Part shown: piece by piece, positions 4,824-50,417 of the stretch
Numbering within the stretch: the stretch's first letter is position 1
How the letters are laid out: every line of letters begins with the position of its first letter
Source of the DNA: Daphnia carinata
Taxonomy: Eukaryota
DNA length: 64,000 nucleotides
NCBI RefSeq assembly: GCF_022539665.2
Contig: NC_081331.1
Coordinates: 12,710,001-12,774,000, forward strand
Direction of reading: 5' to 3'
Notes under the pieces: model-generated
The model's input: only the letters and a program-made list of their open reading frames with translations
Told to the model about the DNA's origin: nothing
Databases searched by the model: none
Position numbers and translations under genes: made by a program

Positions 4824-6488
4824 ATGATAGCAGTAGTAAGTAGATGCATATTGCATTTCATTTTATAATTGCTAATGATATAATGGGATTCGATTCCATT
4901 TTCATTAGGCAATCCTGCCGTTCTTGTTCGCTCGTGCCTTTGCCGCTCCGCAGTATGGGCCGCAAACCGCACCACAGCCATTTAAGACAACATCCCAAGT
5001 CTCGTTTGAACAATGGGCGAATGTCAATCCGTATGGCAACCCTAACGCTAACGCCTCACCGTCCAAACCAAAGGCTAAGATTGAAGAAATCCAGAAACAA
5101 TGGGCCAAATTCCTTGAGTAAGTGGTGCCACTTGAGTCGCTCCTTTGCGCAGACGTAACAACATTTACTGAATGATTTCAACACAGACGCATGCCGTGGT
5201 TAACTGGACCAGCTGGTCCACCGGGCCCACCTGGACCTTCGAGCAGTGGCAGCCAATCCCAACAACAACCCGTTGTTGGACCACCTGGCTTACCTGGAGC
5301 TCCCGGTCCTGCTGGACCTAAAGGAGAACGAGGCAATTCTGGAAATCCTGGAGCTCCTGGTGGGCCCGGGCCAGTAGGACCCTCCGGCCTTAATGGCGCT
5401 CCTGGTGCACTAGGACCGGCTGGCGAACGTGGATCAAACGGAGCTCCTGGTGGGCCCGGTACGCCTGGCTCCCCTGGTGCTAAAGGAGCTGCTGGTGCTA
5501 ATGGTGCTCCTGGCGTCAACGGAGCTCCAGGAGCCCCTGGCAAAGACGGTTTCAATGGCTTACCCGGATTCCAAGGACCCAAAGGCGAAGCGGGTGCACC
5601 CGGTATAACTTTGCCCTCAAACACACCTGGACCTGTAGGAGCTTCAGGTGCCCCTGGTAAAGATGGAGCACCAGGTTTCCCTGGCGGCCCTGGCCCCGTT
5701 GGTCCTGTCGGACCTGTTGGCCCGGTTGGACCTGCTGGCAGACCTGGTACGAATGGATTCCCCGGAGGCCCTGGTCCTAAGGGTGAAGCTGGAACTCCCG
5801 GATTCCCTGGAAGTCCCGGCAAAGATGGACGTCCTGGCGCTCCAAGTACTCAACCAGGTCCAGTTGGACCTCAGGGACCTGTCGGTCCACCCGGCTTCAA
5901 CGGCAAACCTGGAAACGATGGGCTTCCTGGCGGACCAGGTGCCCCAGGCAAAGACGGTCTGCCCGGCGGACCGGGCATTCCAGGTAATTAAATACGATTC
6001 AAAATCGAATTTCTCTATTGATTACTTTTAATTCACGTTCTATTTTTATAGGTGGACCTGGACAACCCGGTAAACCTGGCAAGGATGGTTTGAATGGCGC
6101 TCCTGGAGCTCCCGGTATCCCTGGTGGACCGGGGCCTGTAGGACTTGAGGGCAAACCTGGCCCAGCTGGTCTTCCTGGCAACCCTGGTGGGCCAGGATCA
6201 GCTGGACCGATTGGTGGTCCAGGACCTCAAGGTAAGCCGGGTGCACCAGGATATCCCGGAGGGCCTGGCCCAGTTGGACCTCAAGGTGGACCTGGGCCGC
6301 AAGGGGGACCTGGTCCTAAAGGCGAGTCTGGCACACCTGGTGGCCCAGGACCCGCCGGTCCCCCGGGCCCTCAAGGGCCTGCAGCTTCCACCCCAGCTCC
6401 GGCCTACCCAGCTCCTGCTCAACAGCCATCCTATCAAGCCCCAGCTCAATCATCGTTTCAATCACAACAGTCCAACTACTGGCGATAA
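4824..6488 (+). CDS. Secreted short collagen-like protein 2
   Basis: Exons ~4824-4835 (MIAV), 4909-5118, 5187-~5983, ~6052-6488. Head EQWANVNPY...[17 protein letters not shown], Gly-X-Y tract with the same interruptions as paralog 1 ([14 protein letters not shown]), PAY/QS-rich tail. Confidence 0.88.
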
Positions 6489-8574
6489 ATTTGATTGAAA
6501 TTCAGTTAATTTGCACAACAAACCGTGTGAGCTATATTATGAAGCTATAGTCTCTGCTATTTGTTAAAAAAAAAAAGATTTAGTATACGGAACTTTTTGA
6601 TCATACATGTAAAAAGGAAATATTAAAGTGTTGCTTTGTATACGATGTGAGAAAGACATAAGTGGAAACATGTCAATAAATCATTTTAAATTCTTGATAT
6701 GTTTTATTACTACTTGCAATTATCGAGGTGGTCTATATTAAGAGAGAAATCAAACTTAAAACGTCTAATAAAAAAAGATTAGTGAAAGCTCTTACGGACA
6801 GATCTCTCTCTTGGAGAAATCCATTCAAACGCACAGGCAGATTGATTACGTGAAAGCTAGGCTCGTTCTCTTTAGCGAGAGTTTTCTTAGACCTTAACGA
6901 GAGCGAAGGGTCCAGACGTTGTAAGCTCATCCTCCCCGTTTTCTAATTAGAATTAGATTAAGGACATAGGGATGCCAGAAGGTAACATCTCTCCAGGACC
7001 TTGCAACATTTTAGAGCACGTCACATAAACTCGTCCCGCTCAGCCCAGCGGCTAATCGATTATCAAAAATATTCTGCTCGGTGATCCATTAAGCTAAGAG
7101 GTAACTACTTGGAGAAATTGAAATTGTTATCGTTTATCCGTATACGTCACGATGGCTAGCTCATTACTCGTTTCGCCCAAGCTTATCTTGTTATTGCTGG
7201 CCTATAGTCCGAAGTCTCTCTTTTATGTTTTGAATAGAAACCTGAACGTCTTAAATTCCTGATGATAATTAATGCCTTCTATGCAAATTATGCTTTTTTT
7301 TTTCAATCGAATTTTAGCCTTATCGTTTTTCTTTGCGACCGGTTCACCCAAATTTCTTTGGGCTGTTTCCAAAACTTGGACAGCACATCGTCAGAAAAGA
7401 GTGCAAGTGCAGCCCACAGATTAATCTCGTAACCTACATTTATATTAGGCCCCTATTCGCACGGCATTGGATATCTCGTCCGTTGTTGGTGACCGCAAAT
7501 TCAACAACCGCAGCCATGACTTTGTGTTACAAAAGTTTTCCAATTACATTGATAAAATATTTTCTCCCCCTATACGGTCTACCACGAGATAGATAACATA
7601 TGACCTGCATAGCAATACAGCTTTACGAACGGCGAAGGGAAACGTAAGTTTTTCATTTCTGGGATCTGCGCATTGCACAAGGACGTTGGAGAAAATATGT
7701 ATGAGATGCGGAAAGCCATTTGACCCACTTTTTTACACGACTAGGTAGGTCTCACTCATTGATTTACATGTATGTGCACATTTGGCAGTTTAATATCATT
7801 AGTTCATCATAGCATCTAATCAGTTCCCACATCATATGCGAGTTAGTGGGCATTGCACTCCGCTAAATCCAATTCAAATTCCAAGCTGCGATTTTGCTTA
7901 TGTGTCAGTCAAAGAGACTCACTGAAAAGCACATCCACAACCCGAATGATAACACACGCGTAAATTGTACAAGGATGACTTTCTTTCATTACAATAGCCC
8001 CGACTGCAATCAAAATTAGATTGAGGACGATCAAGCGCTGCAAGCTAACATCTGCACACCAGGCTTACTCATTCGACGTAACTTATAGAAATAATCTCAT
8101 CTTTTCTTCTACATAAGCGATTGTTCTGGTCACTCTCTCCTTGTCAGTGTCCAGATGCAGGCAAGTGGTAACACAAGTTTACATTCTTTTTCTAAAAACT
8201 TGTATTCAGTACAGTCCCACAAATTTTAATTGGCAGAAAAATCATTCGTCCAAGAATGAAACGTTCCATTCTTTAGTGTACCTTATCGCCGAAGTGTTTT
8301 TATAGCCACAGTATGTCACACATTTCAAAATGTTGTATCGCTACCCAGTTATGTGCTGCTGATTATCGTACTTCATCTTAATAAGGTACGCGTTTAGTTT
8401 ATTTTGCTTCGCCTTTTGTTACAAGTACATCCGATTTGCATAGCGTAAAACTCAGATCTGATTTCATACTTAAATGCGAAAATTTCTTCATTGCTATCAC
8501 ATTTTTGTGTGTGCAGTTTAAGCCTTCTTTTGCACGTCATTTTCTGCTGGCCAGAAATACGTGGTGTTAACCTG

Positions 8575-11067
8575 ATGTTTAACGAAATGTCTACGACAAC
8601 ACTGTTGGTACGTCTTCGAATCATGGTCCCATCAGTTTTATAATTTATCATTTCCAGTTGCAAGGATAGTCTTTACAAATACTATATTTGAATGCCAGAT
8701 AATCGTTCCACTCTTGGTGGTCAACTTCCTCTTTATTGCTGTGGCCATCTCGCCACGACAAATAGTTGAAAGGAAACCCATTTCAGAAGATGCTTGGGCC
8801 TCTTTAAACTCCTACCGTGAATCGGAAGCTCGTCATTACCTGACCGAGGAGATAGCGCATATTCAAAGAATTCGGCACGAATTGGAGCGTCTCCTTGATT
8901 CTTTCCTTTTACTCAACACCACGTGTGGTATGTGTCCTCCTGGGCCGCCTGGGCCACCCGGTCCACCAGGGCCACCTACACGAGTACGAAGAGGTACATA
9001 AAAGTATTTGAATGAAATGCAATTTTAGAACGTTGAGGGGCTCATCTACTGTTACTATAAACTACGAAGAAGCGAATGTTCATCGCGGAGGAGGTTACCA
9101 AGGAGGAGGTGGGGGTTACGGTGGAGGTGGCGGAGGTTATGGTGGAAGTAGCGGAGGCTATGGCGGAGGTGGCGGAAGCCAGAAAGGAAAAGGCGGAAGC
9201 AGCAAAGGAAAAGGTGGAGGTGGTGGGGGTTCACCCGGTCCTCCGGGCCCACCTGGACCTCCAGGTCCACCTGGTAGAAACGGTCACGACGGAGAAAAAG
9301 GGGATCCTGGTGAAGACGGGCATCCTGGATCAAAAGGCCCGCCAGGTGAAAAAGGACCACCAGGCAAAGATGGGTCTCCCGGACCCAAAGGGCCAACAGG
9401 AGAAAAAGGCCATGACGGCAAAGACGGATCTCCCGGAGAACCAGGCCCCAAAGGGCCTAAAGGAGATCCTGGTTTTCCTGGTGAGTGTTTCTCAACTGCT
9501 GACGTGCAACTGAAATGTTCCAGACAGTTAGTCTTGCTGTAGATGTTAAGCAGAGGACTGAGAAATGTGGAATTATGCTTGTATCCTCATGCAAATAGGA
9601 TTTCCTGGTAAAGGTGGACTTCCAGGATTGGACGGAAAGCCTGGCGATAAGGGAGAAGATGGCACTCCTGGAGAACCTGGCCCACAAGGACCCAAAGGAG
9701 AAGAAGGGGCCAAGGGTAAGTCTTTTGAATCATTGGAAATGACCCGAGGCTTAATCATATCATCCTTGTTTGCCCATAAAAGGAAGTCCCGGGGACGCGG
9801 GACCTACAGGACCAGAGGGACCCAGCGGACATCCAGGAAAGGATGGTTCTCCAGGCGAAAAAGGCTCTACGGGCGAAACGGGACCAACCGGACCAGTTGG
9901 TCCGAGTGGCACCGACGGCAAAGACGGAACACCGGGAGAAAAAGGTTCAACAGGCGAAACAGGTCTACCAGGGAAAGACGGATCCGCAGGGCCTATAGGG
10001 CCCCCTGGCGAAAAAGGTGATGTCAGACTTTTTAGAGTTAGCTTTTTAAAGTTACATAAATCATGAATTTGTTTTGTAGGTGAACCTGGAGACGCTGGAG
10101 CTGTTGGTTTGGCCGGACTTCCAGGCGATCCCGGAAAAGCTGGCTGGCCTGGTCCACCAGGTCCAGCTGGGCCCAAAGGAGATACCGGAAACGACGGTTG
10201 GCATATTTTAGACTTCATGTTTGATCCATTTTAACACAATCCAAACTTTGATTACTTAAGGGCCTGCAGGTAAAGAAGGCTCTATAGGGCCAGAAGGTCC
10301 AGCCGGTCCGACGGGTAAGTAAAAACTAAAATTATTCTTTCACTATAGCTCTTATTGATCGTTATGCCATCAGGGCCTCCCGGGTCACCTGGTCAAGATG
10401 GACAAGACGGCCAACCAGGCTCAATGGGTGCTCCAGGTGCCGCCGGACAACCAGGGCCTGCCGGTCCGCAAGGTAAGACTGGGCCGCCTGGTTTTACTGG
10501 GGATCCTGGACACCCAGGCCAAATAGGACATATCGGTCCTATAGGGCCTGCAGGACCCCAAGGAAAAGCGGGCCCGGTAGGTCCACCAGGCAAAGCAGGT
10601 CCAGAGGGAAAGATTGGACCTAAAGGTAACATGGCATGCCGACAACAATCTTACATGTAATCAATCAATAAAATTTAATTTTTCTATAACTAATAGGCCC
10701 ACCTGGGAAAGCAGGTAAAGATGGATCACCAGGACCTCCCGGCCGGCCTGGAGAACGTGGCCCACCTGGATCAGGAGGAAAAGCAGGACCATCAACGTCA
10801 GGCAATTACGTACAATATCGAACACCAAACGACAAGAGCAATTCCGGGGGCAAGCAAACCTCATCTGGAACTTCTGGGCCATTTGCTTCTTCGTACAGTT
10901 TACCCCAAGGCGGAAAACGTTCTCCTGTTCCAGGACAGACGTATTCTGCTGGATCGGTCTCACAAAGCAACGCGTCTCAACAGAAAAACCCAAAGCGCCA
11001 AGTACTACCGTCAAATCAAACATCACGCCGTTCGCCGGAGGGTTTGGAACTTCCATCTCATTTGTAG
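8575..11067 (+). CDS. Secreted collagen-like protein 3 (CxxC, furin site, Gly-rich linker, charged Gly-X-Y domain)
   Basis: First exon at 8575/8587-8607, then [16 protein letters not shown] signal, [10 protein letters not shown] head, [22 protein letters not shown]-rich linker, several Gly-X-Y exons (~9240-10790), Ser/Gln tail ending TAG at 11065-11067. Exon boundaries read by eye. Confidence 0.8.
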
Positions 11068-13640
11068 ACTTCTGGAAATAGCCCAGTTTGCTTTCAAATT
11101 TCATTATTTTCGCCAGTGCAATTATTCCGCAAACTTTCCTCAAAAAGCGGGCTTGTGCCAAGGCGTGTGAAATGTTAAAGCTTTCAACTAGATCAGTTAT
11201 ACCATATGTTACTTGAAATTTCGAACGCTTGGGCGTATAATAAACGCCGTTATTGACTTCATTTCCAACTGGTTTGGGAAAGAGAGTCGAAAATGGATGT
11301 ATATATCGATTCAATTTTGATCATGAAATTATTGTGAAGTGCCAGGCTTCACAAATGTTACGTCGATTAATAAAAATTGTATTTCGAATTTTGTCAATCG
11401 TACTGAATAATACCGTTAAAAAACGGCGCTTGATGTTTACCAAATAATTAATGTTATCTAACCTGAAAAAGTCTGCTTTCTTTTGTGCTCTCTGTGAATT
11501 GACGAATTAGCGAAGTAGATCACCAATTCGCCAGTACGACACTGCTGGCCAAATAACACACTGCAAGGTTCTTTAACAAAAGGGAGGAAATGTGGGAAAT
11601 TAGGGAACCCATCCAAAAAACTTTCGTGAAATAGACCACAAACGTCCGTCAATCGTCACGATACAGCGACGTACAGCAACAATCGCCTTTTTATTTTACA
11701 AGGAGAGACTGACGGGATGAGTTTGCCGTGCGGAAATAACTCATTTTCGTCCGACCAATTCGAAACATTTTTATATTCGCACCACAGAGAATATGTGGCC
11801 ATGTGGAGTGAAAGTAAAGTAGCTCACTCGTGAACGGAGCATCCAGGCATGCATGTGTTCCAGTCACCCGTTTTCACGTTGCATTTCTATCTACAAGTAT
11901 ATAGGCTATATAGCGTATGTTATTATGTGCATGACGCTACGCGTTTAACGCGCACTTTCTCGTGCTGCTTTTACTCTTTTTCTTTTGCCTTTCTCATCGT
12001 CAGCATAAACAAGTGTTTCGATGGACGCCCATTCAACGATCTATGACGCTGTCATTCGCAATTAACAACTACGAGAAACATATAAACTTGAACTTTTGCA
12101 TCATACCTTCTCCCCTTGCGCCTCTGTCGTTGGCTTTCAACTTCCGCGTTTCCTTTCTCCTTTTCTAAAATACGCAATTGGGACGGATTCATTTGAATTC
12201 TTGGAAAAACTGTGACATACAATCATTTCGGCACCAAGTGAGACTCTCCTCTTCGGTTGCGTTTTGTTGAATGAATGTAGCAAAAACATGCATAAACGTG
12301 CCATACAGAACGTTTGTTAAAGTGGTTGGTTTTTTAGCGCTTCAAGTGAGGGAACAAATGTTGTATCGTTTTTCAAGTTGGGAGACGACGATTAGCACAT
12401 ATAGAAATCGAGTTTGTAAGAGCCAACAGTTTTTGCTTTTCAACTTTCCGCATGAAATTACTTAGCGCAAGTTTCACTGAATAACATAAAAAGAAAATGA
12501 TTCCAACTTTTGCCGTTTCTTTATTGGTACCCAAAATACCCTAATGAACAATCTACCGGCATACTTTCACAATTAACACATGAGAATGTAAAACGCAGTT
12601 TCTTCGCCTCTTGGGTACATCCGGGATTCAATTAAAACTACTTGGCAAGCAAACTGGAATGCATGAATTTTTTTTTTTTTTTTTGCAGCCGGCTGTAACG
12701 TCTCACGGCATGTTCGTGTTTGATACCCCAACGGTGATGGCCGCTCCGTACATAGCTTACAAACTTTCACCAGATAACCCCACTTTTTTTAAAACTATTC
12801 TCTACATATTAATTTTAGAAATACCTCAAGTTTGGCTTTGAAATATAGTATGACTCGAATTGCTGTAAACACGCGTACCACAACACGAGTGTGGTCTTGA
12901 TGTTTTCTATCTTCCGTTCTACCTCGAAAGATGAAAATAAATGCATACCGCAGTGCGTTTCTTTCTCTTTTTCTTTCCCCGAGGTAAAAAAAAATTTCCC
13001 TTTTACGTCGAATATTTGGGTATAGGTGAAGAGAGATTTCCGCCTATCCATCTGGCCCGATGGAAAGAAGTAGACAGCCAGACTTATTGTATATTGGGCA
13101 CTGACCGCACGGTAAATAGGCTACTTCGTATATGATACAGTCCTCCATTTGCGATCTCTAAAAATACGATCCCACCCATCTTTTCTAACCTGTTTCTATT
13201 GCTAGAGTGACGCGGCCGAGTCGGGTATTTAAAGACAACGATTTCTTCTCCAAAGGCAGTGTTGAGCGGACAACAGTTGAAGAAAGAGCTACTCCAAGAA
13301 AAGGTAAATTCATTCATCCGAAAGCATTTGATGTAGGGCCTCCAAAGGATTTCGCATTATTTCAAAAATAACAACAGCCAATAACTCGCCTTGAACGTTT
13401 CTGCTTCACGCTGCGTTATAGGCGTCCGTATAATTTACTACTTATCGTTAACGTCCGTTCATTTTGTCCTGCTGAATTCCGTTCAAAACGTTTTATCAAA
13501 CAAAAGCTTGTCACACGTATACATTTAAACAACTTTATTCACTAAACATAGTTGACGTGTATGCTAATGGATCCTTCTTCGGTAGATCTATAGTTGATAT
13601 TGCACGCAACGAACCCAACAGGGAATTAGCAATCAGAGCC

Positions 13641-15280
<1,640 letters not shown>

Positions 15281-16511
15281 ATACCCCAACTAATCAAATT
15301 TGAATCGTTTCAAAGATTTTTATGGCAAATATTTTTGTCCATGTCCAGAGTTTAAGATTTCAAGAGTTTATTTTACTTATGTGCACCATGGTTATACTAT
15401 GCTGGTTTCATGACTTTGTGCAAATTGTAAATATACCATGTGTAAGCAAAACGTGTAGTTACATCTCATCAATTTTTTTCACGCTTCTGCCATAAGCTTA
15501 TGCAAGCAATATAGATGACAGAACATCTACCTATATCTTTTCTACATTAATATAAGGAGATTCGGACTGACGCGTGTTTCTTTGCAGTTATGTGTGGGTT
15601 AGACAGCGAAGGCAGACTGTCTTGAATAAATCCCAGTGCATAATGTAGCCTACATGTATGTGTAACGTACGGCTATTATTATCAGCCTCAAATACACTCT
15701 AGTCTGGAACTAAGCGCGGATGCAGTATCGCATCATGCATAGATTAAAAGGATTAATTAAATTCCCTGCTTAAGCTTGATATCAAATCATAAAAAATTGC
15801 TACAACCACCGAAGGATATATTTTGCCATTGCGGCATTGGCATACACTAGTCTATCCAGCTACGGGTGCGTGCTACCAGGAGGTGCTACCGCATCAGGAG
15901 ATCCGTTTACCTGCCCGTAAGCCGATAACATAGCGCGTGCCAACAATGTCACATGCTGAAACGTGATTATGTCGCCTCAATAAAAATGCATTCATTTTGC
16001 TTTGTCTCCCCTACGTCTGATGTCCTTTACTTTAAATATTAGCGCAACCTGCGTTCGGTTTAATGTAATACCAAAAACTTAATGCATCCGCATAGGAGGC
16101 ATATACATTACCTTACAGGGAACGTTGCGAGACTTGAGCCTCTTTTCGAGCTCTGCCAACATTCACACTATGACACAGTTTGAAAAAGAGCCAGACCTTT
16201 CGTAGAACCTTGGATAATAACTTCGCGTGTGGAATATTATCACTCACATGCCTGATTAGGAAGCTACAATTTACGAATACAGTTCTATAGTAAAGAAAGA
16301 ATAAAATGACCCTGAGGTCCGAGAAAGATTTCTTGCGAAACCTGTCTACTCCTACCTTAAATAGGATTGGTTATTATAGAACGAATCATAAAGTTCCTGC
16401 CAACTGATTTCTCCTTTCACCCTCATTTGCACATCGCCTCGAGCAGAAGAAGAGAACGGTATCTACAATAGGTCATCCTCGTAACATCACTTTCATCTGT
16501 CTGCATCCGCA

Positions 16512-21896: not shown

Positions 21897-24800
21897 ATGA
21901 ACAACCACATACGCATGGAATATATGCACCTGTTGCCCTGGCGCCGACTCGCTAAAGAAAACGGAGATGAGGAACTTGGAATAGATGACGACAATGTATT
22001 TATACACATAGTTTGTAATTTTTACCCTATGGTAATTAATTTTCTTTTTTTTTTTTTTTTACAAAGTTATCTGAATCCGAAACTCACTATCACGATGTCA
22101 ACAACCCACGGGGGTCGGTGTACAGCAAGTACAGGTACGTAAACAAAAAGAAATAAAAAACAGGTTTCGTAAAAATAACTTTTCATTGATCCCATTGAAC
22201 AATTTCCCTCGTCCAGTTTAAACGAAGGTGATTTAAAACTCTTGGGCTTTATTCGCGAAGACAATGGAATTATCGAAGAAACTGAAACGGCTAGTGGAAT
22301 GTATTGCACCACTGTTAACCAACGTCTGATGATGGCCATTGAAGACAGAGACACAGTAAGAAAAATAAAACAAGAATAACAATATTATTTGATTGTGCTT
22401 TTTCTTCTAATGCTACGTAATATTATTTTAAACAGGGTGGAATCGAATTTTGCCTAAAAAACGGAGCGGACCCCAACGGTCAATACGGACCCAACAAAAT
22501 CACAGCGCTTCATTTAGCGGTTAGACATTTCGTAATTTTTGTTGTTTCGAGTCTTGCATAATACGTTATTGATTATTCATATTTGATTTCTTAGACGGTT
22601 GGAGCGCCTGAGGCTGTACAAGTTCTTTTGAAACACGGCGCTGACGTAAAAGCGGCCGATTCGAGGGGCATAACACCACTTCACCTAGCTGCTGGCATTG
22701 GTTGTGAGGATCTGGTCCAGCAGCTGATCGTTGCTGGAGCTGACGTAAACGTACAGGATTACGCAAGAGAGAATGGAGGAGGACAGGAAACCCCACTCCA
22801 TCGGGCGGCTGTCGGAGGTCATCTGGAAGCGTTGCGACAATTGATTCATGGTGGAGCTCAGGTAAAGAATATCAAACCTCAAGTCCTTTGTTCATGTCGT
22901 CACTCATTGAATAATAACAGGTGGATATTGGCGAAGCCAGAGGACGGACACCACTTCATTACGCAGCTCAGCGAGGAGCAGCTGGCTGCATCCAGGCCCT
23001 ATTGGATTATCAAGCCGATCCCAACCTATCCGATAAAACAGGTGCTACTGCATTGCTACTCTTAGGAGGAGGTTACCTCATCAAGGGACATCGTCGTGTT
23101 TCAGGGTATTTAATTTAAAATTCCATTCGAAAAATGCTTCTTTAGTATACTTAATACAATTGGCTACAGGTATTCCGAAAGTGTTGAAATTCTAATCAGA
23201 GGAGGAGCCAAAGTGAATGTCAAAGACCCGAACACGGGCGTTACTCCCTTGCACCAAGCCGTAACGCTTGGCCGGTTGGAGTCGACCAAATTACTGCTGG
23301 CATCCGGTGCCGATCTGACCGCACAGGACAGCGAAGGTGGCACTCCGTTTCACTCTTGCGCACTCAAAGGACAAGCGTCTACTCTCAAATATTTATTATC
23401 CCAGCCGGGCGCTAGAGATGCCGTCAATTTGGCCGATTCTAGAGGTCGTATGCCGCTTCATAAAGCAGCTTACCGTGGCTCGGCCGAATGTATTCAACTT
23501 TTGCTGAAAGCTGGCGCCGACCTGGGTGCCAAAACCAAAACGGGCTTGAGTGCGGCCACGCTCATTCTCCAATTGCCGAATGGGGCGAAAATTTTGAGCA
23601 AAAGGCTGGATGAATCCATCATCTCTAACGGAATCGATCCGAGCGAAGTGGCCTGTCGTATCAAGTTCGATTATTCAGTGTTGCTGACGAAGCACAAATT
23701 CCAGCAAATGGGCGTTATCGAGGATATCATGGATGACAGACGTCAGAGGCGTACGGCTGATTTGCTTCAACATCCGGTCATCGAGTCCTTCCTATATTTG
23801 AAATGGCGCAAGATCCGATTTCTCTTCTTTTCAAACATTCTTTTGTATTTGATTCTGGTATCGGGGGTAACCGCCTACGTTCTATCGAGCGTTTGGAATG
23901 ACCCTGTACCGCCAGTTGAACCTCAAGTCACAACAATTTCTCCGGAATTGAATATCAGCGAAACAACAACGGAACCTTTAGTTACAAGTCCAATCGCTTC
24001 GGAACCAGAAACAGTGCTGCAATTGCAATTATCCTTGAACATCATTATACTAATCATCATCGTGCAGGAGGCAATTCAGTTTACGTCACTACATTATCAG
24101 TATTTCCGCGAACCAGAGTCTTGGATAAAACTGGGAGCTCTTGTGACGTCAACCATCGTCATCTTCTCTGCCCCTCCTTGGCCAAGCTGGGTTCATCATG
24201 TGTCAGCTGTGGCTGTTCTTCTAGGCTGGTCTGAGGTCACTCTTCTCCTCGGACGGTAAATTGAATTTATAGCATAAAGAATGAACAAAACAAATTATTA
24301 TCTTGAATCATTTAGATTGCCAACGTTTGGGGTTTATGCACTCATGTTCTACGCGGTGGCACAGCACCTGGTCAAATTCATCTTCGTCTTTTTCTTTTTC
24401 CTCGCTGGCTTCTCGTTTAGTTTCCATCTTGTTTTCAAAGATCGACACGAAACGTTCAGCTCACCGGGGACGTCACTGTTGCGCACGTTTGCTATGATGA
24501 TTGGTGATACTTCTTATGACGAGTAAGTACTAACGATCTAAAATAATTCTTGTTCTCTGGTTAGTTAACTGACGTTGTTTTTTATTTTCTTAGTTACATG
24601 ACTGCAGGCAACGTCAGTCTAGAAGGAACGGCGCATGTCATCTACTTCTTTTTCCTCGTACTAGTTTCACTTATCCTGATGAACTTGCTTATTGGCTTGG
24701 CCGTCAACGATATTCAAGGGCTTCAGAAAGAAGGCAGCATCAAGAGGTTGCGTAAACAGGCCGAATTCATCGTCTATCTGGAGGACATAGCTAGCAATCG

Positions 24801-25416
24801 ATTTTTACGTTGGCTTCTCTTCTGCTCTGGGATCATCCAGCGATTAAACATGTGGATCAACTTGGAACCTGTTTTCACATTCAGCCCTGCCGGACGGAAA
24901 ATGAAAGTCGTCGTCTTACCATCAACAACAGTGGAACGAGCTGTGGCCATAGTTCAAGAAGGTCGTGTACCAGTGGAAAGTATGACCATAAGCGATACTT
25001 ACAATCTTTTACACGAGTGTGTAGCTTCTATCGGAACTCTCCGGCAACGAATCGAAAGCTTAGAACGGGGTCTGATTGGACCTTCATCGGCGACAGCTCC
25101 GCCGGATTCCGGCTCTTCTGAAACAGTTGAACTGAGCGGAGATGCCGGTGTCAATCAGGAGCCTCCAGATTCGGCTGATCAACAAGAGGATTCTGATTCT
25201 TCTGTTTCTGAACTGGATTATCCCAAAAGTCACAAGGGCGATCCGGATGGCATTTCAGATCATCGAGATGGGCCTTACAGTAGGCTGGGCAGATCGTTGT
25301 CGCGTAAGACCAACAAGACAACCAAAACCGTTTTGAAGCGTTCCATCCAATCAGAGTTACTAGACATTAAAAGAATGTTAATAACTCTCACTTCCAAAGA
25401 CGACATCTCATCCTAA
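21897..25416 (+). CDS. TRPA-family ankyrin-repeat cation channel (pyrexia/water witch-like)
   Basis: Multiple ankyrin repeats (GITPLHLAA, ETPLHRAA, GRTPLHYAA, GVTPLHQA, GRMPLHKAA), then LLQHPVIESFLYLKWRKIR, six TM segments, TFAMMIG pore helix and LILMNLLIGLAVNDIQ. Start exon inferred from splice phases. Confidence 0.9.
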
Positions 25417-26698: not shown

Positions 26699-27980
26699 TT
26701 AGCCGTAGTAGGATCCTCTATAGCCTCCATGTCCACCAGCGTAGCCGCTATATCCTCCTTGATATCCACCGTATCCACCGCGATAAACCTTGCGTTTCTT
26801 TTCAGCTGCCTCCAGATCCGCTTCTTGGATGGACCTGCCTTTGCGTCCCTTATATCCTTTGTTGCGATGTTCAGCAGTTTGCTGATCTACAGCAACTGGT
26901 TCTTCTACGGCTGAGCGGCCTTTACGTCCCTTGTATCCCTTGTTGCGATGTTCAGCAGTTTCCAGGTCTGCAACAGAGCGGCCTTTACGTCCCTTGTAGC
27001 CTTTGTTGCGGTGCTCAGCGGTTTCTTGGTCTGCAGCAGCAGCTTCCTCTACGACAGAGCGGCCCTTACGCCCCTTGTATCCTTTGTTTCGATGTTCAGC
27101 GGTCTCCTGGTCTACAGCAGTGGCTTCCTCTACGACAGAGCGGCCCTTACGTCCCTTGTAGCCTTTGTTTCTATGTTCAGCGGTTTCCTGGTCTGCAGCG
27201 GTGGCTTCCTCTACGACGGAGCGGCCCTTGCGTCCCTTATAGCCTTTGTTGCGATGCTCAGCGGTTTCCTGGTCTGCAGCAGTGGATTCCTCTACGACAG
27301 AGCGGCCTTTACGTCCCTTGTAGCCTTTGTTTCGATGTTCAGCGGTTTCCTGGTCTACAGCAGTAGCTTCCTCTACGACAGAGCGGCCCTTACGTCCCTT
27401 GTAGCCTTTATTGCGGTGTTCAGCAGTCTCTAGATCTACCAAGGGTTTTTCTTCTCCTAGGGATCGGCCTTTGCGGCCTTTGTAGCCTTTGTTGCGATGT
27501 TCGGCAGTTTCCTGATCAGCAACAGATGCTTCTTCTCCGAGAGAGCGGCCTTTACGCCCCTTGTATCCCTTATGGCGATGTTCAGCAGTTTCCAGATCTG
27601 CGACAGCTGCTTCTTCTTCAGCAGAGCGGCCTTTACGCCCCTTGTATCCCTTTTTACGATGTTCAGCGGCTTCTAGGTCTGTCTCTTCTCCGGGGGAACG
27701 GCCTTTGCGGCCTTTGTATCCCTTGTAGCGATGCTCTGCAGTTTCTAGGTCTGAAACAGCCGTTTTGACCTGCTGCAGCTCCTCTGCAGCAGCCACCAAG
27801 GCCACTAAACACGCTAATGCGATCTAATGGAAGAATATAACGTAAAAGAGCCAATCAGACACAAAGAAATTACAGCCCAAAACACATTGTTAGATATGTG
27901 ATACCATCAAATCAAAAACACATGGCTAATCAACGTATATTAAAACACTAATTAAGTAAAACTCTTACCACGATTCTCAT
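26699..27980 (-). CDS. Multi-peptide precursor gene A: 12 x HRxKGYKGRKGR plus a C-terminal Gly/Tyr peptide
   Basis: Exon 1 27969-27980 (MRIV), exon 2 26699-27823. Signal IALACLVALVAA; acidic spacers ending D(L/Q)(E/Q)(T/A)AE alternate with the cationic repeat. Confidence 0.9.
26830..27760 (-). repeat. Coding tandem repeat, ~81-nt unit, 12 copies
   Basis: Unit encodes spacer + HRNKGYKGRKGR; the central units are nearly identical at the DNA level. Confidence 0.9.
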
Positions 27981-30474
27981 GTCGTTGCTGCTTGCTATTG
28001 TTGCTTGTAGAAGCGAATGGATTTGTTTATGTTTACCAAGTCATCGGCGTCCCCCTTTTATACCTACACCTAGTCACGCCCTTTTACGCACGGTGCTCCT
28101 AGACCAAGCGTTGTTTGCGCAAACAACTTATATAAGATACACAAATTCTTGAAGGACACGTGTTCTGGAACATCCAGTGAGTACCTCCCTATCCCTCTTC
28201 CCTTTTTTCTTGAACGAAACAAACACATTGCGTGAACTTGAATCCCGTCTGATGCCAGAGGCTAAAAGAATTCTCGTTTCCAGTAGAAATACGCCAAAAG
28301 GCAAATGCCCTCGACATGCGAGTGATCCAAAACAAGTGCAACGTATGACAAGAACTGGTTTGCCAATGACTTGCTGAAACTTCAGGAACCTCAATCGTAT
28401 CAACCAGAGACTTCACCGGCAAACTGTCAAGGCTAAACGCTCAGGTGTACCGGGTTTCACGATGAAATGAACGAGTTTGTTCGTAATCATTTGCATTTTT
28501 GGCTTTGTTCATTTGTTTTTTGTTTTGTTTTTTTGTTTTTTTTTGTTTTTGTTTTTGAGGATAAAACTTGAACTGGTTGCAGCAGTTTTAAGTGTTGGTT
28601 TAAAACATGTCGTGTCGTGTTATCCGGTGTATTTGCATGCTTATTGCTCGGGGTTTTACCCGAATGCCACGTTATGTAACACTTCCAAAAGATAGAACAA
28701 AAACAACATCTTGTTTCATTTTTCTTCACAGTGCCTGCGCATGGCTACTAAAGGTAGGAAGCAAAAAGCTGATGCATCGTTACTCAGCATTACTAAGCAA
28801 AAGGAAAACGAAAACGAATGAACCAAAGAAACATTTACATGCGATATGGAAGTATGTTTTTCGGAACTAAAAAATCATTAGAAAAATTTAAAATATTTGT
28901 AATGTTCATCGCTTGGTTGGAAGGACGTCTGTAAAGTAAGCGCACAACCGCAACAGCGAAGAACCGCAGAGCGCACTAAAGTAACATGAAAACATCGTTC
29001 CGGGAAATTGTATTATAGGGACAATAGCACTACCCTTTTCAAAAAAGGCCAAGATGCATCGCCGGGTTCTGGTCATTCGAAATACCACCAATGTTCTCAT
29101 GAAAGACTAATTAATTTTATGGAGCGAGATTTCTTATTTTTTTCATGGATTTTTGTTTTTCTTCGCCTGGACGTATTTTAGTTCTTTTAATTGACTGATA
29201 TGGTTCTCTCTGCCTAACCGCCAGCTTCTGTCAAGGCTCAGCCAAATTCCGGTTTATTATTTTCGTCAGGAAACAGTGGCAACCATTATGGGCATTGCCA
29301 GTGACAGCTTGCAACCAAAATGCCAATAGCCTTCAGATCAAACAGGAAACTTTTATTTGTACCTCATCATTACCGTGTGCCAAATGAAGTAGTTTACGAT
29401 ATGATAAGCAAAACCAACAGTGTGTCCTTCAATAATCTACGTCGCCCAAATGCCCTTTCAGCTGTCTTAATGTCTGAATTGTATTCGAAATTCATATATC
29501 GAACAATAGCTGCGCAAAACTGGGTTCTTTTAAATGAATCGTCGGCGCCTTCTCCGACAGGTTTGTAGTAAGGTTAAAGAGAACAAACAAACAAAAAAAG
29601 AATAATGCCGAAAGGGAAACGAGCAATACAGGTTCAGCTATTGGCTAACTGCTTTTCGTTATTCTTATGCTAGATGGTGCCAACACCAGGTGAGGGCGCA
29701 GTCTTATGCTTACGAGCCAACAGCTACAGGGTGCTATTCTTGTTTTATATAATCACATTTTAGGGATGTAAAAGAAGAAGTACGTAATATAATATGCTCT
29801 TCAAACAACTGACGAAGCCATACGCAAAACACCAACGTCGTCAAATGTATGTGGTATTTGAAGTTTTTAAAAATAAATTTACCATCTGTCCAGGTAGAAT
29901 TTTATGACGTCGAAAAGTTTTATTTGTGCAATTCTTCGGCATTGCTTTCTTGCGCAATATAAAGAAATTTACCGGGTACATGAACTGATAATATCGTGTG
30001 ATCAACCTAATAACTACTCTGCCAGTTTTATGTTCTTCACCTGCCTGATTATACATTTGCAAGCACGATTGCTCAAGGCGGAACGTGACGCATCTACAGA
30101 CTTTGAGACGTCGCCCTGTTACAATTTAAAACTTATGCTTCAGCCATTTAAGAGTCAAATTATACATGCAATGTAGTTTAACATTAGGAAAAGAATTAGC
30201 TCGAGAGGTGTTAGCTATGTGTCTCGCTTTCGGCTCATTTTTATAAGGATGGCGTTAGCTGTTTCCCACAGGTAAGTTAAATTACTATTTGCAAAAATTT
30301 TAGTAGAAATAAACAACTGATCTAAAAATTGCTTTTTGTTTATTGACACAAAAAAAAAGTTGATAACGGAAACATCCGATAAGGCAGAGTATATAAGTGC
30401 CACAGTGCCGGTAACATTTTGATTGACAGTTGTCGTTTAGAAATGGTAAGTTGAATGTTCGTGGAAGATTGTGT

Positions 30475-31129
30475 TTAGCCGTAATAGCGTCCACCGTATG
30501 CACCGTAGTTTCCACTGGGATATGTACCGTAGCTTCTTCCACGATTTCCTCCGTAGTTTCCGCTTGATGCTCCATAATGTACTCCGTAGTTTCCGCTTGA
30601 TGCTCCATAATATCCTCCGTAGTTTCCACTGGATGCCGTACGATATGCTCCGGAACTGGTTCTACGAGTTTCAGCTGTATTCAAGTCTGCAACGGCATCT
30701 TCTTCGACGGAGCGTCCGTATCGGGCTTTATGTCCGCTCTGTCCCCCATATCCTCCATAGCCGCTGTGTCCACTATATCCTCCATAGGCGCTGTGTCCTC
30801 CATATCCGCCACGGCCCCCGTAACCGCTGTATCCACGGTAACCACCGTACGCACCGAATTTGCCCTCAGCAGCATCCAAGTCGGTCATCTGATCAACTAG
30901 TTCAGCCTGGTCTAAGGCTGCAGCTACTGCCAACAAACACGCTAATGCGATCTATAGAAATTGGATCATAATGCTTAGCACTTTTAACTGTTACGTTGCT
31001 CTTCTTTGACATTTAGATTAGCACATCATTTAAATATTGCGTTGATGGGCATTTCACGATTTAATTACAGTTAGAGTGAACCAATTAAACTAAATTAGAA
31101 TAGATTTGCACACTTACCGCGATTTTCAT
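30475..31129 (-). CDS. Gly/Tyr-rich two-peptide precursor gene B
   Basis: Exon 1 31118-31129 (MKIA), exon 2 30475-30951. DLDAAE-peptide-RYGR-SVEEDAVADLNTAE-peptide, with three ASSGNYG repeats. Confidence 0.88.
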
Positions 31130-35444: not shown

Positions 35445-36427
35445 TTAACCGTGGTAGTGGCCGTGTCCACCACCGAATCCACCGTGTCCATATCCGCCGT
35501 GATGTCCACCTCCGTAACCGCCATGGTGTCCACCTCCATAGCCTCCGTGGTGATGGTGCCCACCTCCATAGCCTCCGTGATGATGGTGTCCACCTCCATA
35601 CCCACCATAATGGCCACCGCCATATCCATGGTGATGTTGTTCGGCGCCCTCCTGATCGGCAATTTCAACAACTGGCTGAACGACCGCTACGGCTGGCTGG
35701 ATTGCTTCAACAGATCTGCGTTTGCGTCCCCATCCGCCGAATCCATGGCTGTGCCCTCCTCCGTATCCACCATGGTGTCCGCCTCCATATCCACCGTGGT
35801 GTCCGCCTCCATATCCACCGTGATGCCCACCTCCATAGCCCCCGTGGTGATGATGTCCACCTCCATACCCACCATGATGGCCACCACCATATCCATGGTA
35901 ATGTTGTTCGGCGGCTTCCTGGTCGGTAATCTCAACAACTGGTTGGACGACCTCTACTGCTGGCTGGACGACTTCTACTGCTGGCTGAATTGCTTCAAGA
36001 GATCTGCGTTTGCGTCCCCATCCGCCGAATCCATGGCCGTGTCCGCCTCCGTGTCCGCCTCCGTATCCACTGTGGTGGCCGCCATGGTGCCCGCCTCCGT
36101 ATCCACTATGATGGCCGCCATAGTGCCCGCCTCCGCCGTGGTGCCCACCGCCGTATCCGCCGTGATGTCCACCACCGTACCCACCATAATGTTGCTCGGC
36201 AACGTCTTGATCAGCGACGACAGCAACTGGTTGGCTTCCCTCTACTAATGGCTGGTTTTCCTCAACGGCTACGGCTAGCGCCACTAAGCTCGCCAAGACA
36301 ATCTATGTAGATCACGTACATTGAAACAAAAAAGAATGCTCAGTGAATTAAACTAAACTCAATAATAAAAATCCTAATTGTTTGACACTACTTGTTTACA
36401 CAGCTGACAACTTACCACGAGTTTCAT
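35445..36427 (-). CDS. His/Gly-rich three-peptide precursor gene C
   Basis: Exon 1 36416-36427 (MKLV), exon 2 35445-36302. Three units DQxxAE-QH...(GGGHHGGY)n; the first two end GFGGWG-RKRR-S. Confidence 0.9.
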
Positions 36428-38687: not shown

Positions 38688-39141
38688 TCAGCCATGATGG
38701 CCGAAACTACCATAACCACCATGTCCGCTATGCCCACCATGCCCGCCATGATGTCCACCGTAGTGTCCGCGGCCTCCGTATCCTCCACGTCGATGTTCCG
38801 CAGTTTCTAAGTCAGCGACAACGGCATCGTCTTCAACGGAGCGACGCTTACGACCCCAACCATAGTGTCCATGATATCCGCCCCGATATCCTCCATATCC
38901 GCCACGGTAGCCTCCATAACCGTGTCTGCGATGTTCGGCCACATCAAGATCAGCGGCCTCGACGACAACGTCTGCTTCTTCAACTGCTGCTGCGGCTAGC
39001 GCCATTAAACATACTAATGCGATCTGATGGAAATAACATGCAAACATAATACAAGTCAACGTCAGATAAACAATTCGCAGATTTAATTCTAATTTCTTGA
39101 ATTTGAATGTAGGAAAAATGGAGTCTTACCACGACTTTCAT
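38688..39141 (-). CDS. Gly/His/Arg-rich two-peptide precursor gene D
   Basis: Exon 1 39130-39141 (MKVV), exon 2 38688-39023. DLDVAE-HRRHGYGG...YGWG-RKRR-SVEDDAVVADLETAE-HRRGGY... Confidence 0.9.
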
Positions 39142-40259: not shown

Positions 40260-41004
40260 TTAGCGTCCCCAACCATAACCTCCATAACCTCCATAACCTC
40301 CATAGCCACCGTAAGTAATGGGCCTATACCCATTGTAGCTACCATAACCATCGTAGTTACCGTAACCTCTATTGATACCATAGCCACCGTAACCACCGTA
40401 GGCTACATTATGATGCTCAGCGGTTTCTTGATCTACAACGACGTCGTCTTCAACAGAGCGGCCTTTACGACTGTGTCCATTGTATCCGCTGTATCCTCCA
40501 CGGCCACCATATCCAGCGTATCTTCGGCTTTCGGCTGCGTTAAGATCAGAGACATCCCGGACGATTGGTTCTGCATCCTCTACGATTGGCTGGTCTTCTC
40601 CAATTGAACGGCGTTTTCGGCCCCATCCACCATGTTGGCCGTATCCACTGTGTCCCCCATATCCGCCGTATCCACTATGTCCCCCATGTCCGCCGTATCC
40701 ATTAGGACGTCCTCCGTATCCACCATATCCACTAGGACGTCCACCGTATCCTCTGCTGTGGTGTTCTGCAGCATCCAGGTCTGTTACCTCACCGACTTCA
40801 GGTTTAGCCTTGTCCTCGGCTACGCATAGCGCCAGCAAGCAGGTCAGTACGATCTATAGTTGGATAGTGCAGCACGGAAATGAAATTTAGATTTGTTTAA
40901 GTAGGATATAGGCAAAAATACGTACACTTTGATTCGAAATGAGGTCTAACAGTAATCTTTTTGATATAAGTAAAGTGAGAATTAGATTTTACCACAAGTT
41001 TCAT
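40260..41004 (-). CDS. Gly/Tyr-rich three-peptide precursor gene E
   Basis: Exon 1 40993-41004 (MKLV), exon 2 40260-40853. DLDAAE / WG-RKRR-S / DLNAAE / RKGR-S / DQETAE; ends GYGWGR*. Confidence 0.9.
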
Positions 41005-43915: not shown

Positions 43916-44464
43916 TTAGCCGCGGTGGCCGCCGTATCCACTATAACCTCCGTGTCCGCCATAACTTCCGTATCCACCATAACCTCCGTGTCCACCATAA
44001 CTTCCGTGTCCGCCGTAGCTTCCACGTCCTCCATAGCCCCAACCTCCACGACGATGTTCAGCGGCTTCTAAGTCAGTAGCAAGGGCGTCGTCTTCAACCG
44101 AACGACGTTTACGGCCCCATCCGTGTCCACCATATCCTCCGTAACCACCTCGATGTCCTCCGCCATACCCTCCGTATCCCCCTCGATATCCTCCGCCATA
44201 ACCTCCGTATCCACTAGGCCGGCCTCCGTAGTATCCGCTTCTGTGGTGTTCGGCAGCGTCTAGATCAGCTACCTGGACGACTACATCAGCCTCATCAACG
44301 GCGGCGGCTAGTGCCATTAGGCACGCTAATGCGATCTAATTTAATTGGTTCACACAATAGCTTTATTAAATTGAAAGTCCTTTCACTATCTTCAGAAAAT
44401 TATCTTAAACTACATATAATCACTATTCAAATGAAAAGAAATTATTTCTTACCACGACTTTCAT
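43916..44464 (-). CDS. Gly/Tyr-rich two-peptide precursor gene G
   Basis: Exon 1 44453-44464 (MKVV), exon 2 43916-44335. DLDAAE...HGWG-RKRR-SVEDDALATDLEAAE-HRRGGWGY... Confidence 0.9.
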
Positions 44465-45719: not shown

Positions 45720-46242
45720 TTAGCCATGATAACCACCATATCCGCCATACCGTCTATATCCACCATAACCTCCGTATCCACCATAACTTCCGTATCCGCC
45801 GTAGCCTCCGTATCCGCCGTAGCCTCCACGACCTCCATAACCCCAACCTCCACGGTAATGTTCAGCGGTGTCCAAGTCGGCCGCCAGCACTTCGTCTTCA
45901 ACCGAGCGACGTTTACGGCCCCATCCGTATCCTCTGTGTCCACCGTACCCACCGTATCCTCCGTGATATCCGCCACCGTATCCTCCGTATCCTCCGTACC
46001 GTCCGGGACGTCCTCCGTAGTATCCACCACGGTGTGCGGCAACATCGAGGTCAGCTACTTCGACTGCTACGTCCGTCTCATCAACGGCAGCGGCTAGTGC
46101 CATTAGGCAGGCAAATGCGATCTAGTTTGGTTGATTGAAAATGAAGATTCAAATTCGATTCAGAATGTACTATAGCAATGAATTGATATCATTTAACGTC
46201 ACTATTTAAATGAGGAAAGTAATATCTTACCACAACTTTCAT
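45720..46242 (-). CDS. Gly/Tyr-rich two-peptide precursor gene H
   Basis: Exon 1 46231-46242 (MKVV), exon 2 45720-46121. Close paralog of G; YGWG-RKRR-SVEDEVLAADLDTAE-HYRGGWGY(GGY)n. Confidence 0.9.
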
Positions 46243-47675: not shown

Positions 47676-48559
47676 TTAACGTCCCCATTGATTATGTCCT
47701 CCATATGAGCCATAATTGTTGGATGATTGCCCACCATAGCCAGGATAGCTGTTATAGCCACCACCATAGCCGCCATTATTTCCATAGCCATTATTTCCAT
47801 AGCCATTATTTCCATAGCCATTATTTCCATAGCCATTATTTCCATAGCCATTATTTCCATAGCCACCTGAATTTCCATAGCCACCATAGCTTCCGTAACC
47901 TTGAGCGTGATGCTCAGCAGCTTCCAAGTCAATGACGTCGTCGTCTTCGAGGGATCGGCGTTTGCGGCCAAATGCATGTCCACCGTGGCCACCACTGTGT
48001 CCACCGCGATGTCCTCCTGCGTTTCCATGCCGATGTCCTCCTCCTTGTCCAGCGTAATGACCACCGGTTCTTCTGCTCTCGGCAACATCAATGTCGACGA
48101 CATCCTGAACAAACGGCTGAACGCTCAGAACATTAGGCAGATTTTCCTTAACCGATCGGTGGCCTCGTCCGCCGGAGTATGCAGGTCCGTTAGAGTATGG
48201 ACGTTGGGCGTTAAGGTGTGCACTGTGTCCACCCCGATTTCCACCATAATTGCCAGCCTGTTGTCCACCATAACCGGGATTTCTAGACGCATGATGTTCG
48301 GCGACATCCAAATCAGCAATGTGTTCAACTTGTTCGATCCCTTGAGCTGTTGCGAATAGCGCCAGCAAACAAGTTAATGCGATCTAATCAGATCATATTA
48401 AAACGAATATGTAGGAATATGTTATTTCTTTGGACAACATAATAAAACTGATGAACTCCATATCCAACATGGGAAACGATTCACGCTTAAGAATTTGCCA
48501 TGTCAGAGGTTTGTTTTAAACTGATAGTTAGATAGTTTCGATCTTACGGCAATTTTCAT
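47676..48559 (-). CDS. Gly/Asn/Tyr/His-rich three-peptide precursor gene I
   Basis: Exon 1 48548-48559 (MKIA), exon 2 47676-48383. DLDVAE / RGHR-S / DIDVAE / FG-RKRR-S / DLEAAE; (GYGNN)x5 repeat; ends QWGR*. Confidence 0.9.
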
Positions 48560-49865: not shown

Positions 49866-50417
49866 TTAACCGGAGTACCCAAAGACACGGTGGCCTCCAT
49901 TACTACCATAGCCCCAACCTCCGTATCCGCTGCGATAGTCACCATAGCCATAGCTTTTGGTATTTCCGTAGCCATTGCTTTTGGTACTTCCATAGCTTCC
50001 ATATCCTCCGGTACTTCCATAGCTTCCATAGCCTCCGGTACTTCCATAGCCTCCCCAACCTCCAGTGCTTCCATAGCCTCCATAGCTTCGACGCTGATGT
50101 TCCGCAGCCTCCAAATCAGAGGCAAGCGCTCCGTCTTCGACTGAACGGCGTTGACGGCCCCATCCGTATGTTCCACGATATGCGCTACCATATGGTCTAT
50201 ATCCACTGGGGTATCCTCCATGGTGCCAAACTCGCCTGGATTCGGCAACATCCAAATCAGATGCCTCTACTACTGCGTCCGTCTCAACGGCGGCGGCAAG
50301 CGCCATAAGGCATGCAAGTACGATCTGGTTTAATCAATCGAATTATAGTAAGCATATAAGTAAACTTATGAGAGCTAAAATAATTATTTTAAATTAAAAG
50401 CTTACCACGACTTTCAT
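49866..50417 (-). CDS. Gly/Tyr-rich two-peptide precursor gene J (recent tandem quartet, copy 1)
   Basis: Exon 1 50406-50417 (MKVV), exon 2 49866-50324. DLDVAE...YGWG-RQRR-SVEDGALASDLEAAE-HQRRSY... Confidence 0.9.

Follow-up and report, generated by a model that had tools for sequence, protein, structure and literature searches.

A predicted multipeptide precursor with twelve short cationic repeats in a paralog cluster of Daphnia carinata

Precursors that carry several peptides are already known. Those of apidaecin and ant hymenoptaecin comprise a signal peptide, tandem near-identical cationic peptides, acidic spacers and basic cut sites, and their copy number varies between species (PMC11549390, PMC3415428). 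Spacers of the apidaecin type (RR-EAEPEAEP) are removed as E/D-A/P dipeptides (PMC3415428). Drosophila Baramicin A contains tandem short peptides between RXRR furin sites together with a longer Gly-rich cationic peptide (PMC8423362). The glycine-rich AMPs of arthropods (armadillidin, ctenidins, acanthoscurrin and holotricin 3) and the glycine-rich secreted peptides of nematodes are described as secreted, Gly-rich, cationic and unstructured (PMC5031766, PMC10506718). Among branchiopods, SGEG2 of Artemia is a secreted precursor presumed to be cut at RxxR into matrix peptides (PMC3108945).

The gene described here, gene A, shares the first of these layouts, including a copy number that differs between gene A and its ortholog; with Baramicin A it shares the tandem short peptides and a longer Gly-rich basic tail, and with SGEG2 the branchiopod origin and the RxxR sites. 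It lies in a window of 64,000 nucleotides (the whole stretch of Daphnia carinata DNA that was analysed), whose features are collected in Table 1. Gene A is a two-exon gene of the minus strand coding for 378 amino acids. It belongs to a group of 12 or more neighbouring paralogs sharing one module, formed by an acidic spacer ending in D[L/Q]xxAE, a basic Gly/Tyr peptide and RxxR|S. The four-codon exon 1 is common to gene A and all paralogs, and so is the leader; the five features of the precursor family (four-codon exon 1, shared leader, D[L/Q]xxAE spacer, basic peptide and RxxR|S) were all found. Long plus-strand and off-frame open reading frames over the array were rejected as genes because the splice joint marks the minus strand.

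Table 1. Position of the features of gene A, its promoter and the paralog cluster in the window
Feature	Position	Strand	Remark
Gene A exon 1, coding part (MRIV)	27969..27980	-	GTAAGA donor next; splice joint in run X1
Gene A intron, 145 nt, phase 0, GT-AG	27824..27968	-	skipped in X1 contig
Gene A exon 2: remainder of signal peptide, the 12 spacer-peptide modules, Gly/Tyr tail module and stop codon	26699..27823	-
Gene A predicted signal peptide, its hydrophobic core and end (about residues 5-17)	27785..27823	-	hydropathy only
Array of 12 HRxKGYKGRKGR units, each with an acidic spacer ending in D[L/Q]xxAE before it and Ser after it	26834..27733	-
13th module of gene A: 33-aa basic Gly/Tyr tail, last residue Gly	26702..26800	-
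Paralog B, 2 modules, RYGR|S	30475..31129	-
Paralog C, 3 His/Gly-rich modules, RKRR|S	35445..36427	-
Paralog D, 2 modules	38688..39141	-
Paralog E, 3 modules	40260..41004	-	one junction RKGR|S then DQETAE, like gene A
Paralog F, 2 modules	43916..44464	-
Paralog G, 2 modules	45720..46242	-
Paralog H, 3 modules	47676..48559	-	exon 2 identical to P0012 letter for letter
Paralog I	49866..50417	-	exon 2 identical to P0001 letter for letter
Paralog J	52127-51541	-	recent duplicate of I
Paralog K	54123-53524	-	recent duplicate of I
Paralog L	55889-55252	-	recent duplicate of I
TATA box of gene A	28057..28062	-	82 nt before ATG
CGTGAC-type element	28073..28078	-	16 nt before gene A TATA box
Grainyhead-like site	28353..28360	.	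at -380; L001 has one at -382; weak, post hoc
Second Grainyhead-like site of gene A	28571-28578

An earlier, sequence-only reading had counted 12 copies of a cationic dodecapeptide, and the translation of the gene model agrees: nine units carry HRNK and one each HRYK, HRKK and HRHK. The unit contains 25% Gly, a single Tyr in its 12 residues (8%) and neither Pro nor any aliphatic residue (GRAVY -2.87); its charge is +6. It also carries XBBXBX patterns, which are of the heparin-binding type. Six K/R per unit and five D/E per spacer had been proposed, counts that hold for 11 of the 12 units (seven K/R in the other) and for 8 of the 12 spacers (range 3 to 6) and are therefore not uniform. The near self-neutralization claimed for the precursor is true of the full module (peptide +6, spacer -5, sum +1) but not of the whole, which after the leader bears a net charge of +20 (81 K/R, 61 D/E, pI 9.6).

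The 57-nt cores of the units differ by 2 to 16 nt in all 66 pairs and no two are identical in DNA; the longest exact repeat within the coding sequence is 44 nt. Because no two units share their DNA, the array was not collapsed or doubled by assembly, an artefact that the sequence-only reading had considered, and run X1 provides six contig pieces that agree with the array without other letters; the count of 12 itself is spanned by no single read or contig. One contig of run X1 skips 27823-27969 (CT..AC on the plus strand, that is GT..AG on the minus strand), which is the predicted intron. In run X3 a loose end at 27824 continues into exon 1. Depth is zero in all four runs over both the upstream flank and the bin that covers intron alone. 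Transcription and splicing of gene A from the minus strand are thus shown here as well as in a relative, the RNA nature of X1 resting on the spliced contig since the runs are not recorded as RNA. The lack of expression named earlier as a possible objection does not apply. Contig depths at gene A (about 3-6 in X2, hundreds to thousands in X1 and far higher in X3 and X4) give no ranking of expression between runs. In one low-depth contig of run X2, 9 nt inserted at 26926 double YKG within one unit, which shows that the unit can grow through internal triplet repeats; the tail of this contig has an insertion of 21 nt.

KGYKGRKGR is invariant in protein in the 12 units, with at least 11 synonymous and no non-synonymous changes. 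Over these units the peptide has a Nei-Gojobori dN/dS of 0.023. The six residues preceding it, the DxETAE motif, have 0.036 and are as constrained as the peptide. In the nine units with full-length spacers the peptide has a dN/dS of 0.018 (at least 14 synonymous changes, 1 non-synonymous) versus 0.57 in the variable part of the spacer (8 synonymous, 14 non-synonymous; Fisher p = 0.0006, a generous value since the units share history), with bootstrap ranges of 0.0006-0.049 and 0.19-1.35. All four changes listed within peptides of a diverged X2 contig are synonymous. Selection on the peptide, proposed from its invariance, is borne out by these values (about 0.02 versus 0.57): the repeat is far below the spacer, rather than no lower.

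The ortholog, L001 (a metagenome locus, one of 38 candidate stretches), has the exon layout of gene A and a tail in which 25 of 33 residues are identical. It contains only three units where gene A has 12, and two of them are 14 residues long. Between gene A and L001 the most constrained segment is G-RKGR-S (pN/pS 0.014), followed by HRxKGYK (0.11) and DxxxAE (0.19).

Processing at RKGR|S is probable. Furin requires RxxR as its minimal site, the fuller form being RX[K/R]R, and RKGR, with Gly at P2, is of the minimal form. RxxR|S was identified at all 12 gene A boundaries, and R at P4 with Ser at P1' at all 14 paralog junctions (RKRR in 7, RQRR in 3, and RYGR, RKGR, RGHR and RHRR in one each, always before Ser). 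Among 54 junctions of 29 homologs R is at P4 in 49 and Ser at P1' in 50, with a junction finder that favours these residues; paralogs and units share ancestry, so these counts are not independent. The retention of RxxR|S across the family points to RKGR|S as its furin-type boundary, as the sequence-only reading had suggested in one of its two options, and the constraint on G-RKGR-S agrees. The other option, the 7-mer HRNKGYK-amide, is disfavoured: it needs a cut within RKGR, while the family boundary falls after it. The products are likely 10-12-mers, possibly amidated.

Trimming of K/R would leave a terminal Gly in 51 of 54 homolog junctions (background Gly 0.48), through the routes G-RKRR and RxG-R, and in 9 of 14 paralog junctions, the other five exposing none. 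The C-terminus is Gly or Gly-Arg in 10 of 11 paralogs, in gene A and in L001, and Gly in 17 of 29 homologs (p = 0.17), in a family that is Gly-rich. Gly also precedes the site in four paralogs where RQRR or RHRR would block amidation. The amidation signal may partly reflect the Gly-richness of the family.

No peptide lacks D[L/Q]xxAE ahead of it; the motif is present even before the first one, which follows the signal peptide and has no furin site upstream. Because of this position, and because it is as constrained as the peptide, the motif likely marks the N-terminal cut of the peptide by a second protease. In all 12 spacers of gene A, 1-4 of the 4-7 dipeptides after RKGR end in A or P. A cut after AEHR by the processing-quadruplet rule of spider precursors was tried and rejected: Arg occupies the second place after the motif at no more than 42 of 70 homolog sites, and the first unit of L001 has no Arg there.

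The 11 further genes of the cluster occupy 30.5-55.9 kb of the window on the minus strand, with D[L/Q]xxAE ahead of every basic segment. Their peptides comprise 24-94 residues with 22-54% Gly and a charge of 0 to +8, being mostly cationic. The gene A unit would represent the family module at its minimum, with GYKG where the paralogs have GYGG. The three modules of paralog C are 64-mers, each starting with Gln (possible pyroglutamate), and are candidates for metal binding or coacervation. A 13th, diverged gene (42928 to about 42170, minus strand) shares the exon 1 type (here MRVL), TATA box and leader of the cluster and has apparently several exons and a Gly/Tyr segment at its end; D[L/Q]xxAE was not found in it. 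The cluster adjoins a carbonyl-reductase-like gene (57208-57810, minus strand). The D. galeata model P0045 fuses the ortholog of this gene (74% identical) to cluster members; the fusion is probably a gene-model error but shows that the neighbourhood is conserved. Elsewhere in the window, about four clustered short collagen-like genes (Gly-X-Y; Pfam Collagen) were identified at 1700-15300 on the plus strand, two of them with a PWLxGP motif just ahead of the triple helix. An ankyrin-repeat gene at 22600-25400, also on the plus strand, has transmembrane segments after the repeats and is likely a TRPA-type channel.

All 12 cluster genes and L001 have a TATA box at -75 to -91. A C[G/C/A]TGA[C/T]-type element stands 16-17 nt before it in 11 of these 13 promoters, from which the pattern itself was drawn, and suggests shared regulation. 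Gene A and L001 have several promoter blocks in common. One, the heat-shock-element-like GGAnnTTCnnGAA, is at 28163-28175 and in L001 about 176 nt before the ATG; CTTATATAA-TTGTTTGC and GCATTTG-CTTTTGG are others. No enrichment was seen for GATA, CRE/AP1 or E-box sites in the promoters examined. Three kB-like sites were identified, in paralogs C, J and L (0.39 in shuffles), J and L being near-duplicates.

A profile of eight paralogs retrieved 30 proteins, including those of D. magna, D. pulex and D. galeata, with Artemia franciscana more distant. The Artemia franciscana proteins P0025 and P0039-P0041 contain 2-4 near-identical Gly/Tyr modules ending in YGRKRR, with DEDAAA in place of D[L/Q]xxAE. 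Gene A itself had no match at E <=0.001 among the proteins of 205-655 aa in a set of 5.8 billion; among the shorter ones a single family member, P0010, was matched, and neither search returned a protein with gene A's own length or repeat. HMMER against 1.84 billion representatives gave eight matches; among seven of them only the Logan protein P0034 has the module, the rest being unrelated repeats. P0034 contains short Arg/His/Tyr peptides ending in Rx-G-R|S with similar acidic motifs ahead, which indicates that the short-peptide layout exists with other sequences. Pfam gave nothing over a curated cut-off for gene A and six paralogs, and PDB sequences gave only Gly-rich noise. The nearest Atlas cluster to gene A is apidaecin (0.77, a lead only), and paralog D had no usable match there.

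Family members are present in databases as keratin-associated protein 19-2-like, ctenidin-1-like, shematrin-like protein 2 and glycine-rich cell wall structural protein of Daphnia and Artemia. Two of these entries, P0012 (ctenidin-1-like [Daphnia carinata]) and P0001 (keratin-associated protein 19-2-like [Daphnia carinata]), are the window paralogs H and I letter for letter; the others share the module. The automatic names vary from one member to another and describe composition only. A search of the open-access literature by topics and motifs gave no description of the family; the motifs DLETAE, DLEAAE, DQETAE, DLDVAE, KGYKGRKGR and DLxxAE retrieved one unrelated paper. The family is likewise unmentioned in the searched passages of PMC13587834, 10.1101/2025.03.28.645445, PMC13322756, PMC3244413 and PMC4449106, and its automatic names are absent from the main text of two Daphnia infection transcriptome papers.

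Maturation of gene A would start with removal of the signal peptide. A furin-type convertase would then cut after each RKGR, as family conservation and known convertase chemistry suggest, a carboxypeptidase would take off the last Arg, and the resulting 11-mer, ending in Gly, would be amidated there to the 10-mer HRxKGYKGRK-amide. To free the N-terminus, the precursor would have to be cut a second time, at D[L/Q]xxAE|H or close to it; without this cut the product would be a zwitterionic 27-mer of charge +1. For the HRNK unit the predicted neutral monoisotopic masses are 1455.83 (12-mer), 1299.73 (11-mer), 1241.72 (10-mer amide), 900.50 (7-mer amide) and 3014.53 (27-mer with spacer). The acidic spacer would mask the +6 charge of the peptide in the secretory pathway, and each transcript would deliver a higher dose through the repetition of a minimal module. 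In the least secure step, the free peptide would bind polyanions (LPS, teichoic acid, nucleic acid or acidic mucus) at an epithelial surface.

The function favoured for the predicted gene A peptides, tentatively and with somewhat less than even confidence, is a non-lytic barrier defence based on polyanion binding. Binding by charge is likely from the composition. Membrane lysis is unlikely because the peptide is without aliphatic residues (GRAVY -2.9), and the hydrophobic face of membrane-lytic amphipathic AMPs is not present. The layout of host-defence peptide genes (PMC11549390, PMC5031766) is seen here in the acidic propieces, the probable amide donors, the amplified copies and the Gly-rich, cationic nature of the paralogs. 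A secreted (by hydropathy), cationic, Gly-rich mature peptide, as in glycine-rich AMPs, fits both the paralogs and the gene A unit. Counting against defence is the absence of kB-like sites within 700 nt of gene A or L001, though Grainyhead-like sites exist there. A survey of the Daphnia genome reported the Toll pathway and recovered no AMPs (PMC2685406), and a 2025 preprint states that Daphnia is not known to secrete them (10.1101/2025.03.28.645445). It is possible, though less likely than not, that the cluster is this missing arsenal: a set of charge-masked multipeptide precursors of branchiopods whose maturation signal, D[L/Q]xxAE, is undescribed. The gene A peptide would then have shrunk to a 10-residue Lys/Arg amide that acts as a non-lytic polycation and is present 12-fold. 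Daphnia is a main model for host-parasite coevolution, and the cluster supplies concrete, cheaply made candidates for its antimicrobial peptides.

Only slightly less probable is a matrix function, in which the same processing would yield epidermal components of cuticle, egg coat or ephippium that condense with acidic proteins or phosphate and cross-link via Tyr, Lys and His. The Gly/Tyr-rich make-up of the paralogs is similar to that of cuticle and eggshell proteins. Grainyhead-like sites, two each before gene A and L001, amount to four in 13 promoters versus 0.68 in shuffles (2 of 200), and a link between Grh and the moult network of Daphnia is reported (PMC5569996); by strict sites, however, there are two versus 1.06 expected from the rest of the window (p = 0.29), and the 11 paralogs lack them. 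Artemia SGEG2 is presumed to be cut at RYKR into cyst-shell matrix peptides (PMC3108945), and a D. magna gene named keratin-associated protein 19-2, which may or may not belong to this family, groups with cuticle and vitelline genes (PMC10253896). No Pfam match to a chitin-binding consensus domain was obtained at E up to 1 for gene A and six paralogs. A soluble 10-12-mer would be a poor building block, and the conserved Gly before basic ends is better explained by amidated bioactive peptides. Even as a source of matrix components, the family would represent a branchiopod way to deliver polycations from charge-masked precursors.

That the protein acts uncut, the whole chain or its 27-mers self-coacervating into a secretory or matrix gel, is improbable. 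The block-charge pattern from which the sequence-only reading had derived possible coacervation does exceed chance (blockiness 0.148 versus 0.069 +/- 0.011, reached by none of 500 shuffles), yet it is expected of any precursor with acidic propieces and basic peptides. The +1 charge of the full module fits a polyampholyte, and D[L/Q]xxAE is not associated with any known protease. Such a protein should, however, tolerate K/R and D/E swaps, whereas KGYKGRKGR has no non-synonymous change among units, and RxxR|S is kept throughout the family. Slightly less probable still is a neuropeptide or peptide hormone, with amidated products of a multi-copy precursor acting on a receptor, which had also been suggested earlier. 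Signal peptide, repeated copies, basic sites, Gly donors and the RY- or RF-amide ends predicted at some homolog junctions would suit it, but the gene A peptide is half basic and lacks a hydrophobic C-terminal motif, its unit length is 12 versus 14 in L001, the paralog peptides are low-complexity Gly/Tyr segments of 24-94 residues and no Pfam family was matched. A DOPA-Lys wet adhesive like mussel foot proteins, the last of the earlier suggestions, is highly improbable: GYK, with Tyr in a Lys/Gly context next to Lys, is present in all 12 units and YK is kept in L001, but Tyr is one residue in 12 against 20-30% DOPA in Mfp-3/5, GYKG reads as a Lys-substituted GYGG of the family, and adhesive proteins gave no sequence match.

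The systems named at the outset can be compared with gene A feature by feature. Glycine-rich arthropod AMPs mostly have one peptide per precursor, and the gene A unit differs from them in being a Lys-rich 12-mer with 25% Gly. The paralog peptides do fit their composition, armadillidin having 47% Gly (PMC5031766), while the label ctenidin-1-like on paralog H is an automatic low-complexity one and not a test. SGEG2 forms two long peptides rather than repeats, is not called Gly-rich in the main text of its paper and stands apart from gene A by its description (PMC3108945). No motif common to Baramicin A and gene A was seen; gene A also differs in its RKGR site, its long acidic spacers and the lack of a kB-like site. 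The likeness to apidaecin precursors, noted earlier, holds for the tandem cationic peptides and acidic spacers; apidaecin is Pro-rich with a PRPPHPRL-like C-terminus, whereas the gene A unit is without Pro and has no match to Pfam Apidaecin, and its spacer has no X-A/X-P dipeptide ladder, D[L/Q]xxAE standing there instead. Gene A and apidaecin are analogous in layout, not homologous. By the features tested, gene A is not an apidaecin, a Baramicin or a mussel foot protein, and it belongs to the known type of multipeptide precursor, with a sequence not covered by any Pfam family, any solved structure or a usable cluster of the Atlas.
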